A program made the position numbers and the translations under genes. Below, one piece after another: positions 48,021 to 48,772 of a stretch of 64,000 nt of DNA (within the stretch, counting starts at the first letter, position 1; the number at the start of each line of letters is the position of its first letter). The stretch comes from Ostreococcus lucimarinus (Eukaryota), in the NCBI GenBank assembly GCA_000092065.1, contig CP000581.1. One strand, given 5' to 3'. The notes under the pieces are model-generated. The model saw nothing but the letters and a program-made list of their open reading frames with translations. It was not told the DNA's origin and did not search any database.

Positions 48021-48772
48021 ATGAGCGCCAAGTTCGCGTTCAAGCAGGAGCATCCCTTCGGTGCGCGTCGACGCGCGCGATCGACCGCGCGCGCGCGCGA
48101 CGCGCGCGACCGCGCGCGACCGCGCGGTGGGCACGCGCGCGACGATTTGATTCGCGACGACGACGACGCGTCGCGCGCGCGACGGCGCGCGACGCGCGAC
48201 GCGACGGCGCGCGAGGGACGACGTCGATCGTTCGCGTCGCGGGACGGCGTCGCGCGTCGCGCGCGCGACGGGACGCGCGTCGCGGACGCGGACGATGGGT
48301 CTCGACCGTTGCGAGATTTAAACGCGAGACGAGACGAGACGAGAAGAGACGAGACGACGAAGGCGCGCGGACGACGAGGGACTGACGACGCGGACACGCG
48401 CGCGACGCAGATAAACGCGCGAGCGAATCGGCGCGAATTCGAGGGAAATACAACGATCGCGTGCCGGTGATCGTGGAGCGCGCGGAGAAGAGCGACGCGC
48501 CGACGCTCGATAAGAAGAAGTATCTCGTCCCGGCGGATCTCACGGTGGGACAGTTCGTGTACGTGATTCGTAAGCGCATCAAGCTCAGCGCGGAGAAGGC
48601 GATATTCATTTTCGTGAATAACGTGTTGCCGCCGACGGCGGCGCTGATGTCGGCGGTGTACGAGGAACATAAGGACGAGGACGGGTTTCTGTACGTGACG
48701 TATTCGGGGGAGAATACGTTCGGCGGCGAACGCGCGAGCGACGAAGACGACGAGGCGAGCGTCGCGCGATGA
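48021..48772 (+). CDS. ATG8: Autophagy-related protein 8 (ATG8/LC3/GABARAP), two exons: 48021..48060 and 48411..48772
   Basis: Exon 1 encodes [13 protein letters not shown] plus one nt. The intron 48061..48410 begins gtgcgcg and ends cgacgcag. Exon 2 reads (D)[119 protein letters not shown]. The spliced protein aligns end-to-end with yeast Atg8 ([40 protein letters not shown]...). Exon 2 appears in the track as GTG-start ORF 48461. Confidence 0.8.
48061..48410 (+). other. Spliceosomal intron of ATG8 (GT..AG, 350 nt, about 78% GC, contains (gagacga)n repeats)
   Basis: Phase-1 donor ttcg|gtgcgcg. The acceptor cgcag|at restores the frame exactly at the conserved Atg8 sequence. Internal repeats gagacgagacgagacgagaagagacgagacga lie at about 48321-48352. 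Confidence 0.75.

Follow-up and report, generated by a model that had tools for sequence, protein, structure and literature searches.

The four introns described here, from a 64 kb stretch of DNA of Ostreococcus lucimarinus CCE9901 (hereafter the window; genome of Palenik et al. 2007), are almost certainly U2-type spliceosomal introns of ordinary kind, belonging to the canonical class that occurs throughout this genome except in the low-GC part of chromosome 2. ATG8 is split by one of them, an ordinary and already annotated intron that presents nothing new. Three of the four (those of ATG8, the RING-finger gene and NDUFB7) were already in the 2007 GenBank annotation, and the splice-signal pattern was described in 2008. 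The only new item concerns PDH E1-alpha, which, judged from its sequence, probably has an upstream exon encoding the start of the presequence that is lacking in both reference annotations.

The structure of ATG8 was found to be as follows.

48021..48060, plus strand: ATG8 exon 1, 40 nt, 13 codons from the ATG at 48021 plus the first base of codon 14
48061..48410, plus strand: ATG8 intron 1, 350 nt, phase 1, GTGCGCG...GACGCAG, between codons 13 and 14
48380..48387, plus strand: branch-site motif GACTGACG of the ATG8 intron, with 25 nt from the branch A to exon 2
48411..48772, plus strand: ATG8 exon 2, starting with bases 2 and 3 of codon 14 (Asp) and ending in the TGA stop

Excision of 48061-48410 gave a 133-aa Atg8 identical to GenBank XP_001415651.1. 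The spliced product matched Pfam PF02991 (ATG8) with E=6e-50 over residues 15-118 (profile positions 1-104 of 104), and its alignment with Arabidopsis ATG8f (PDB 7dht residues 2-117) was free of gaps over the exon junction. Matches to PDB entries ran from residue 2-3 to 118, covering the N-terminal helical extension. At the C-terminus, YSGENTFG(118) is followed by 15 further residues and aligns with the ...ENTFG end of solved ATG8 structures; Gly118 is, by this alignment, the conserved C-terminal Gly that a predicted ATG4 cleavage would expose. In the unspliced gene the frame of exon 2 meets a stop within the intron, contributed by the branch motif itself (gaCTGAcg), and the next in-frame ATG is found only near residue 92. 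Two proteins (P0004 and P0006) were composed of the 5'UTR, exon 1 and exon 2 of ATG8 in spliced form, with the junction directly before DKRASES, and P0137 (UniRef A0A7R9XS72) showed this junction too, along with a single independent residue change. The 'merc' proteins (P0004/P0006), UniRef A0A7R9XS72 and the MMETSP proteins are presumably from transcript-derived catalogues, and through them the junction appears to be supported, indirectly, by transcript-type evidence. The preliminary description had placed the first 13 codons in a separate exon, had split the gene by a 350-nt GT..AG intron and had expected splicing to restore a full-length Atg8. Each of these points was confirmed, the intron being exactly 350 nt.

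The remaining three introns and their exons are located as follows.

25258..25356, plus strand: RING exon 1, 33 codons, MRARVDDILRAQPTSQSIPAEVVAYELKRLILE
25357..25414, plus strand: RING intron, 58 nt, phase 0, GTGTGCC...aGACTGACc...ATAG, GC 65.5%
25415..26362, plus strand: RING exon 2, in which 25415-25492 (78 nt) is coding
18568-18378 and 18190-18139, minus strand: NDUFB7 exons 1 and 2, flanking the fourth canonical intron in the window
18191..18377, minus strand: NDUFB7 intron, 187 nt, phase 2, GC 72%, GTGCGTG...cGACTGACGg...GTAG
21664..21714, plus strand: probable PDH E1-alpha exon 1, 51 nt, 17 codons, MLAAIAKRAASSACART, absent from public annotation
21715..21868, plus strand: probable PDH E1-alpha intron, 154 nt, phase 0, GC 68%, GTGCGCG...tGACTGATg...AACAG
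21869..23002, plus strand: PDH E1-alpha exon 2, in which the annotated XP_001415646.1 starts at the internal ATG 21926

All four introns have GT...AG ends and leave, once removed, an open reading frame with homology. The ATG8, RING and NDUFB7 products are the annotated proteins (for RING with the 58-nt intron, 348 aa, identical to XP_001415648.1; for NDUFB7, 80 aa, identical to XP_001415983.1), and the PDH junction is in frame. Irimia and Roy (2008), who drew on 17,592 ESTs, reported a 5' consensus of GTGCGTG for EST-confirmed O. lucimarinus introns outside chromosome 2; the published signals of this set comprise GTGCGYG at the donor, GACTGACG at the branch site and a terminal YAG, with ACTGAC present in 87% and GACTGACG in 66.5% of the introns (PMC2483917). 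The donors in the window were all near GTGCGTG: GTGCGCG in ATG8 and PDH, GTGCGTG in NDUFB7, and GTGTGCC in RING (GTGCGCT in the related locus L014). The similar GTG(C/T)G donors that had been remarked on in several genes are present, and they are simply the published 5' splice-site consensus of the species (PMC2483917). The ATG8 branch motif GACTGACG was identical to the published extended branch consensus (PMC2483917), and the distance from branch to acceptor was 25 nt in ATG8 and 35 nt in NDUFB7 (both GACTGACG), 13 nt in RING (GACTGACC) and 18 nt in PDH (GACTGATG).

Taken singly, these motifs were not enriched in the window, where GTGCGYG was found 101 times compared to 87 +/- 9 expected and GACTGAY 11 times compared to 14 expected; they are therefore useless as stand-alone predictors. 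An automated scan for donor, branch, acceptor and ORF together was too noisy inside long ORFs and was useful only in GC-rich, non-coding-looking contexts. What carries the evidence is donor, branch site, YAG, reading frame and homology taken together, and no single motif. Each intron has the strong, lineage-specific signals on which its presumed splicing chemistry would rely: a G before the junction followed by GTG(C/T)G(C/T)G, the branch site (G)ACTGA(C/T)(G), and a YAG 13-35 nt past the branch A. The CpG-rich, low-complexity interiors would be dispensable for splicing and would evolve fast by slippage and small duplications. Removal of the ATG8 intron joins the 40-nt first exon to the gene body to give the 133-aa Atg8, and introns of the same class split RING (58 nt), NDUFB7 (187 nt) and, probably, PDH E1-alpha (154 nt).

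For the RING gene the preliminary description had proposed an intron at 25357..25492. Its upstream ATG exon and its donor at 25357 stood, but the acceptor did not, the true one being at 25414 in agreement with XP_001415648.1. A TAG at 25412-25414 in the frame of exon 2 fixes the exon boundary, and L014 and L015 have an intron at this site too, of 66 nt and 120 nt. That the gene would nevertheless use the 136-nt intron, always or as an alternative 3' splice site, and so drop 26 codons in frame, is highly improbable. The ctctctgcag at 25483-25492 does resemble a pyrimidine tract followed by CAG, and, as the two candidate introns differ by 78 nt, a multiple of three, an isoform that keeps the frame could exist. 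However, the 26 codons are part of the annotated protein, and relatives at 40-50% identity keep them as LD(E/D)xVxDxxRSSTWxxVRxFF. Over 25415-25492 the window and its close relative L014 differ at 14 nucleotides spread over 12 codons. Each of the 12 codon changes is synonymous (0 non-synonymous) and the alignment has no gaps; the segment is therefore coding. Moreover, the branch site lies 91 nt from 25492, compared to 13-35 nt in the four introns of the window and 25-45 nt in the ATG8 introns of relatives.

In PDH E1-alpha (domain PF00676, E1_dh, E=1.9e-116), the preliminary description had pointed to a mini-ORF at 21664 and a GTGCGCG at 21715; both were found, and the in-frame exon junction is kept in three lineages. 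The frame of exon 2 is open back to a stop at approximately 21848 with no in-frame ATG before 21926. From the upstream stop to the annotated start codon there is a single AG, the matching acceptor at 21868. An equivalent intron was found in L011, in L007 (O. tauri-like, 165 nt) and in L008/L009 (171 nt). Mini-exon, intron and in-frame junction are kept together with MLAA(I/L)A and RAFAA. The first 30 residues of the resulting 36-aa extension contain 5 Arg/Lys, 0 Asp/Glu and 11 Ala, and the extension is rich in Ala, Ser and Thr; it looks mitochondrial, and targeting is predicted on that composition. The first exon would then encode the start of a mitochondrial-looking presequence that the public gene models omit.

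It is unlikely that PDH E1-alpha instead starts at 21926 and that the upstream mini-ORF and splice-like motifs are 5'UTR or chance. In favor of such a start, the protein is annotated at 358 aa in both references (XP_001415646.1 and the re-annotated O. tauri XP_003074609.2), and the exact look-up found neither spliced model (O. lucimarinus, 394 aa; O. tauri, 390 aa) in the protein collection. The extension was in no transcript-derived protein recovered, and the N-terminal protein search found none across the junction among close relatives. In addition, the branch motif in the window is the rarer GACTGAT, a minority variant; the 99%-identical L011 has GACTGAC (GACTGACG). Against it, a 358-aa protein would be devoid of a targeting sequence, and the distant relatives P0264, P0265 and P0267 have continuous N-terminal presequences. 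The frame 5' of 21926 is open for 19 codons with RAFAA in common with O. tauri, and in each of three lineages a start-codon mini-exon, followed by canonical donor, branch site and CAG, is joined in frame. The basic, non-acidic composition of the extension also argues for the upstream exon, which remains the preferred reading.

The ATG8 intron had also been suggested to belong to a repeated intron family. A BLASTN search of the intron against the window did not support this: the matches elsewhere were 67-78% identical, CG-rich, of low complexity and on both strands, and no discrete copies were found. The best non-self match had 72.6% identity over 197 of the 350 nt, far under the definition of introner elements (approximately 80% identity over approximately 80% of the length), and no copy reaching that definition was found in the 64 kb window, from a genome of roughly 13 Mb, and approximately 60 kb of relatives. 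In pairwise BLAST between the introns, no match exceeded 72.5% identity or covered more than 142 nt of the ATG8 intron, and there was no family-level similarity.

That the intron is an introner-like copy, from a mobile or repeated family that spread recently into many genes, RING and PDH E1-alpha among them, has accordingly only a very slight probability. It is long (350 nt, compared to the species median of 111 nt) and has internal repeats. It also exceeded its dinucleotide shuffles in number and quality of window matches, including those to the NDUFB7 and PDH introns (best match 77 bits versus 61 +/- 7; HSPs 48 versus 11 +/- 6), and some shared higher-order sequence therefore exists. As evidence of a family these scores were rejected, given the approximately 70% identity of the CG-rich matches and the lack of discrete copies. 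The matches fall on both strands and also in 5' spacers and transit-peptide coding regions, and therefore reflect composition. Among the matches listed (at least 120 loci), the conserved 16-mer GACCGTTGCGAGATTT was found at 117 unrelated chance matches and 3 Ostreococcus ATG8 loci, the latter being its sole occurrences in Ostreococcus DNA; the metagenome scan with this 16-mer was a weak test, the query being too short for that collection.

The position of the intron also argues against a recent, lineage-specific insertion. Its site and phase recur in O. tauri and in L001, L003/4 and L005/6, exon 1 is kept in L001, L003-L006 and O. tauri, and Volvox carteri (GL378348.1, locus L012) has a phase 1 intron at the identical ATG8 site. 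Since the position is shared by O. tauri, the four metagenomic lineages and Volvox, it is ancient, and there was no recent insertion. The introns of the relatives are 317-373 nt long with GTGCG(C/T), (G/C)ACTGACG and CAG.

The interior of the ATG8 intron changes rapidly. Alignment with L001 gave 95-98% identity for the exons and 69%, with 61 gap columns, for the intron; in five Ostreococcus lineages the length is held at 317-373 nt and most of the sequence cannot be aligned. The intron has a GC content of 75.1%, rather than the approximately 78% given earlier, and a CpG observed/expected ratio of 2.2. An imperfect 86-nt internal duplication (x2.4) occupies 48086-48290, and the repeats described as (gagacga)n are in fact pentanucleotide and not heptamer. 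Two further features were located in the intron.

48303..48314, plus strand: conserved 12-mer CGACCGTTGCGA, found in the window, L001, L005 and O. tauri, 87-108 nt 5' of the 3' splice site
48325..48357, plus strand: (CGAGA)x6.6 pentanucleotide microsatellite, kept in L001

The 12-mer CGACCGTTGCGA is the sole block of the intron that is both non-low-complexity and kept across Ostreococcus lineages (4/5 lineages). Its reverse strand reads CAACGG, a core typical of MYB binding sites. The 12-mer could be a putative intronic cis-regulatory element for ATG8 or for the adjoining, divergently transcribed TPR gene. A small hairpin around it was not kept in relatives. No Rfam family came near its gathering score on 47700-48900, and the RNA fold of the intron was no more stable than that of shuffles (z = -0.79), indicating no structure beyond composition. 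It is a speculative and rather doubtful reading that the first intron of ATG8 is more than a spacer and, as a more modest second proposal, that targeting-peptide 5' exons are systematically absent from Ostreococcus reference annotations.

The ATG8 intron has very little weight for biology at large. A small but real practical value lies in PDH E1-alpha, whose first exon seems to have been left out of the annotation in O. lucimarinus and O. tauri alike; such a model would be without its targeting sequence and would give misleading predictions of subcellular localisation. It is the supported case for the proposed annotation-wide loss of short targeting-peptide 5' exons in Ostreococcus, and the motif logic of GTGCGYG ... 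GACTGAC ... YAG before N-terminally short ORFs could reveal missed 5' exons in Mamiellales. One further candidate was identified by motifs and reading frame only.

59554..59670, minus strand: candidate unannotated intron, 117 nt, GTGCGCG...cGACTGACGg...28 nt...TAG

Its removal would connect a 61-nt exon that begins with ATG (59731-59671) with the gene annotated as XP_001415994.1; the resulting 424-aa model (gene 58340-59731) was absent from the protein collection by exact look-up. This candidate and another at 1126/1229-1381 would be further missed targeting-peptide 5' exons.

Among known systems, the canonical O. lucimarinus introns (PMC2483917) are like those of the window in having GT-AG ends, a GTGCGTG-like donor, a GACTGACG branch site, a short gap between branch and acceptor and a high GC content, and in lying in an intron-poor, gene-dense region, typically as a single intron close to the gene's 5' end. 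With its 350 nt the ATG8 intron exceeds the published median of 111 nt and, at 75% GC, also the all-intron average of approximately 63%, an average that includes the low-GC chromosome 2 introns. Minor variants are seen in the RING donor (GTGTGCC) and in the branch site of PDH (GACTGAT); otherwise nothing essential differs. The introner elements of Micromonas, a sister genus in the same order (Mamiellales), are also GC-rich, functional spliceosomal introns with recognisable branch sites (Worden 2009; Verhelst 2013, PMC3879977; Simmons 2015, PMC4540971; van Baren 2016, PMC4815162), and the IE-C class of Micromonas RCC299 carries GACTGACG too. However, introners occur in hundreds to thousands of copies of high sequence identity, as clade-specific insertions, whereas the DNA searched here contained no such copies of the ATG8 intron, and its position is ancient and conserved. 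The Volvox ATG8 intron is also in phase 1 and interrupts the gene at the identical codon, after ...H-x-(F/I) and before D-K-R, but it is shorter (approximately 80 nt by eye), its donor is a conventional GTAAGC and it is not rich in CG. The introns of intron-poor yeasts (GTATGT / TACTAAC) are likewise few, with near-invariant 5' splice-site and branch motifs and a 5' bias (PMC2483917); they differ in their consensus sequences and belong to an unrelated lineage, and their likeness to those of Ostreococcus is convergent.

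Translation of 47700-49200 resolved the ATG8 gene as follows:

48021 (ATG) onward, plus strand: ATG8 exon 1, 13 codons plus one base
48061-48410, plus strand: ATG8 intron, GTGCGCG to GACGCAG
48411 to the TGA at 48770-48772, plus strand: ATG8 exon 2

With GTGCGCG at 48061 and GACGCAG ending at 48410, the intron is exactly 350 nt long and lies in phase 1. The 133-aa spliced product matched the whole Pfam ATG8 profile (E=6e-50) and was gap-free across the junction when aligned with solved Atg8 structures, such as residues 2-117 of Arabidopsis ATG8f (7dht). The branch motif gaCTGAcg supplies an in-intron stop in the exon 2 frame and the next in-frame ATG lies near residue 92; therefore, no functional Atg8 is possible without splicing. 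Coordinates, translation, Pfam match and 7dht alignment agree with the preliminary description, in which ATG8 was split by a 350-nt GT..AG intron whose removal gives a full-length Atg8. The GC content of the intron was found to be 75.1% and not the approximately 78% given there (57-59% in the exons), and the repeat given as (gagacga)n is actually (CGAGA)x6.6 at 48325-48357. An imperfect 86-nt x2.4 duplication occupies 48086-48290.

An exact-sequence look-up showed that XP_001415651.1/ABO93943.1 is identical to the spliced protein, indicating that public annotation has contained the 350-nt intron from the genome paper onwards. The UniRef protein A0A7R9XS72 (Ostreococcus sp. 'lucimarinus', 133 aa) differs by one residue and keeps the junction HPF|DKR, and the 'merc' proteins P0004 and P0006 contain the translated 5' leader (48000-48020), then exon 1, then exon 2. 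Because we take the sources of the 'merc' proteins and A0A7R9XS72 to be transcriptome and metatranscriptome assemblies, these proteins were regarded as evidence, though indirect, that the transcript is spliced. The ATG8 observation thus holds, as does its main interpretation, but both are ordinary and were known before.

The 'GTG(C/T)G-initiated' intron pattern rediscovers a published consensus. Outside chromosome 2, O. lucimarinus introns confirmed by ESTs have the atypical 5' consensus GTGCGTG (4.8 bits), with ACTGAC in 87% and the extended GACTGACG in 66.5% of them (Irimia & Roy 2008, PMC2483917), and canonical Micromonas introns have AG|GTGCGT and NCTGAC (Verhelst et al. 2013, PMC3879977). 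Single splice motifs are uninformative within the window, where GTGCGYG was observed 101 times compared to 87 +/- 9 expected, and GACTGAY 11 times compared to 14 expected.

The sole item beyond the public record is a probable 5' exon of PDH E1-alpha. As annotated, the PDH E1-alpha protein is 358 aa long in both O. lucimarinus (XP_001415646.1) and O. tauri (XP_003074609.2) and begins M-(V/T)-IETPVPF. Upstream of the annotated start, the frame has 19 further open codons and no ATG, and the interval contains a single AG, at 21867-21868.

21664-21714, plus strand: PDH E1-alpha exon 1, MLAAIAKRAASSACART
21715-21868, plus strand: PDH E1-alpha intron, 154 nt, GTGCGCG...tGACTGATg...AACAG

When the exon was joined through this intron, the protein gained 36 residues, the first 30 of which include 0 acidic residues, 5 Arg/Lys and 11 Ala. 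The same architecture was found in a 99%-identical metagenomic strain (L011) with the branch site GACTGACG, in an O. tauri-like locus (L007), where MLAALATRAMRRCA is followed by a 165-nt intron GTGCGTCG...GACTGACG...GCAG, and in a third lineage (L008/L009), whose exon and intron measure 87 and 171 nt. Presequences are continuous in more distant relatives. No transcript-derived protein across the PDH junction was found in protein searches of relatives. The in-frame junction and the architecture common to these loci support the upstream exon at 21664 and the GTGCGCG donor at 21715 proposed earlier, making this exon very probable but not proven and, plausibly, a correction to the reference annotations of both O. 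lucimarinus and O. tauri.

The PDH branch site is GACTGATG in the window (21845-21852) and the consensus GACTGACG in L011 (600-607), suggestive of polymorphism at a position that hardly varies as a rule. In the third lineage (L008 2001-3245, L009 and L010), the ORF breaks and restarts approximately 190 nt further on, which would imply an additional intron that O. lucimarinus and O. tauri lack.

For the RING gene, the intron proposed at 25357..25492 has the correct donor and follows a correct upstream exon (25258-25356), but its acceptor is misplaced.

25357-25414, plus strand: RING intron, 58 nt, GTGTGCC...aGACTGACc...ATAG

The TAG at 25412-25414 in the exon 2 frame places the acceptor at 25414, and the resulting 348-aa model is identical to XP_001415648.1. 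Acceptor 25492 was rejected because 25415-25492 is conserved: it encodes LD(E/D)xVxDxxRSSTWxxVRxFF, conserved in relatives at 40-50% identity, and differs from the 92%-identical locus L014 by 14 nucleotides in 12 codons, all synonymous and with 0 gaps. The 58-nt intron segment has 8 gap columns against L014. A 50%-identical relative, L015, has a 120-nt intron at the site (1547-1666); it is in frame and stop-free, and is read through by prokaryote-style gene callers (P0124, P0128). In a variant, P0128, additional 30-nt units encode TTREASTDRV, suggesting that the length of the intron is polymorphic through tandem repetition.

GACTGAC sites led to a fourth intron in the window, this one annotated, in NDUFB7 (spliced product identical to XP_001415983.1), and an unannotated candidate was found upstream of the gene annotated XP_001415994.1.

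18377-18191, minus strand: NDUFB7 intron, 187 nt, GTGCGTG...cGACTGACGg...GTAG
59670-59554, minus strand: candidate intron, 117 nt, GTGCGCG...cGACTGACGg...TAG
59731-59671, minus strand: candidate 5' exon, MPSVARRAACAAGALALGFYAYEHARTTES

The annotated XP_001415994.1 product is 386 aa and starts MSYCAAAV; the spliced 424-aa candidate model was absent from the protein collection by exact look-up. Three more GACTGACG sites occur in non-coding-looking contexts (1333+, 20721-, 49865-). Downstream of the site at 1333, TAG|GCG at 1381 directly precedes a 1293-codon ORF (1385-5266) that probably has an upstream exon, with GTGCGTC at 1126 or GTGCGGC at 1229 as candidate donors. On the minus strand, 49830-49875 forms a perfect intron 3' end (tGACTGACGg...30 nt...GCGCAG|GT) within the 242-nt spacer between a convergent RRM gene (48967-49710, plus) and a CSTF64-like ORF (49953-50960, minus). 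This spacer is 93% identical to the metagenome contig L001, conservation equal to that of coding sequence, and the site may belong to an intron in a 3'UTR or to a small exon missing from the annotation. The minus-strand site at 20721-20727 precedes the likely start codon (20637) of a 608-codon ORF (18811-20637) by approximately 90 nt and may be part of an intron in the 5'UTR; the 900 nt upstream contain no GTG(C/T)G donor.

The 4.5-kb contig L001, the closest relative, is collinear with 46667-51202 at 91.6% identity. ATG8 exons 1 and 2 were 95% and 98% identical to it, compared to 69% for the intron (61 gap columns) and 67% for the 5' spacer, with many indels across 47932-48410, and 90-93% for the 3' spacers (48773-48966 and 49711-49952). 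The CpG-rich low-complexity DNA of the intron and 5' spacer turns over much faster than the 3' spacers. Other lineages and O. tauri likewise carry exon 1 and, at the identical codon, an intron in phase 1 that ends in CAG.

ATG8 introns of Ostreococcus: length; GC; donor; branch motif; distance from branch A to exon 2
Window: 350 nt; 75%; GTGCGC; GACTGACG; 25 nt
L001: 331 nt; 73%; GTGCGC; GACTGACG; 29 nt
L003/L004 (metagenomic): 370 nt; 56%; GTGCGT; CACTGACG; 45 nt
L005/L006 (metagenomic): 363/373 nt; 69%; GTGCGT; GACTGACG; 37 nt
O. tauri (L013): 317 nt; 67.5%; GTGCGT; GACTGACG; 34 nt

Splice signals aside, the sole conserved non-low-complexity block of the intron is CGACCGTTGCGA (48303-48314); in four of five Ostreococcus lineages it precedes the acceptor by 87-108 nt. 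The surrounding intron is unalignable, yet its length stays within 317-373 nt. Rfam gave no match at this block and the intron fold was no more stable than shuffles (z = -0.79). CAACGG on the reverse strand is presumably a MYB-type core, and CGACCGTTGCGA is possibly a DNA-level regulatory site.

The suggestion of a repeated intron family was not upheld by BLASTN of the ATG8 intron against the rest of the window. Matches were 67-78% identical, on both strands, to at least 10 CG-rich tracts (other introns, 5' spacers and regions coding Ala/Arg-rich N-termini), the best being 72.6% over 197 nt, and no discrete copies were found within the 64 kb. Resembling tracts lie mostly at gene 5' ends, in spacers and in introns. 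The intron exceeded its own dinucleotide shuffles (77 compared to 61 +/- 7 bits; 48 compared to 11 +/- 6 HSPs of at least 45 bits), and has higher-order CG-rich words in common with these tracts. CpG observed/expected was 2.1-2.3 in the 117-350-nt introns, 1.45 in the 58-nt RING intron and 1.64 in ORFs, and most ORFs have 65-79% GC in their first 150 nt compared to 54-60% in the bodies of the longest genes, indicating that this composition is a regional property and not a family signature.

Introner elements, the repeated introns of Micromonas, show high identity throughout the genome and have been recovered using thresholds of 80% for both identity and length (PMC4815162). Within the 64-kb window, the ATG8 intron falls short of both values: no match to another intron exceeds 72.5% identity or covers more than 142 nt of it. 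In Volvox carteri, ATG8 has a phase-1 intron at the identical codon (...HSI g|GTAAGC...GCAG|at-DKR), so that the intron position is ancient within green algae; combined with the similarity values from the 64 kb searched, this led us to reject an introner origin.
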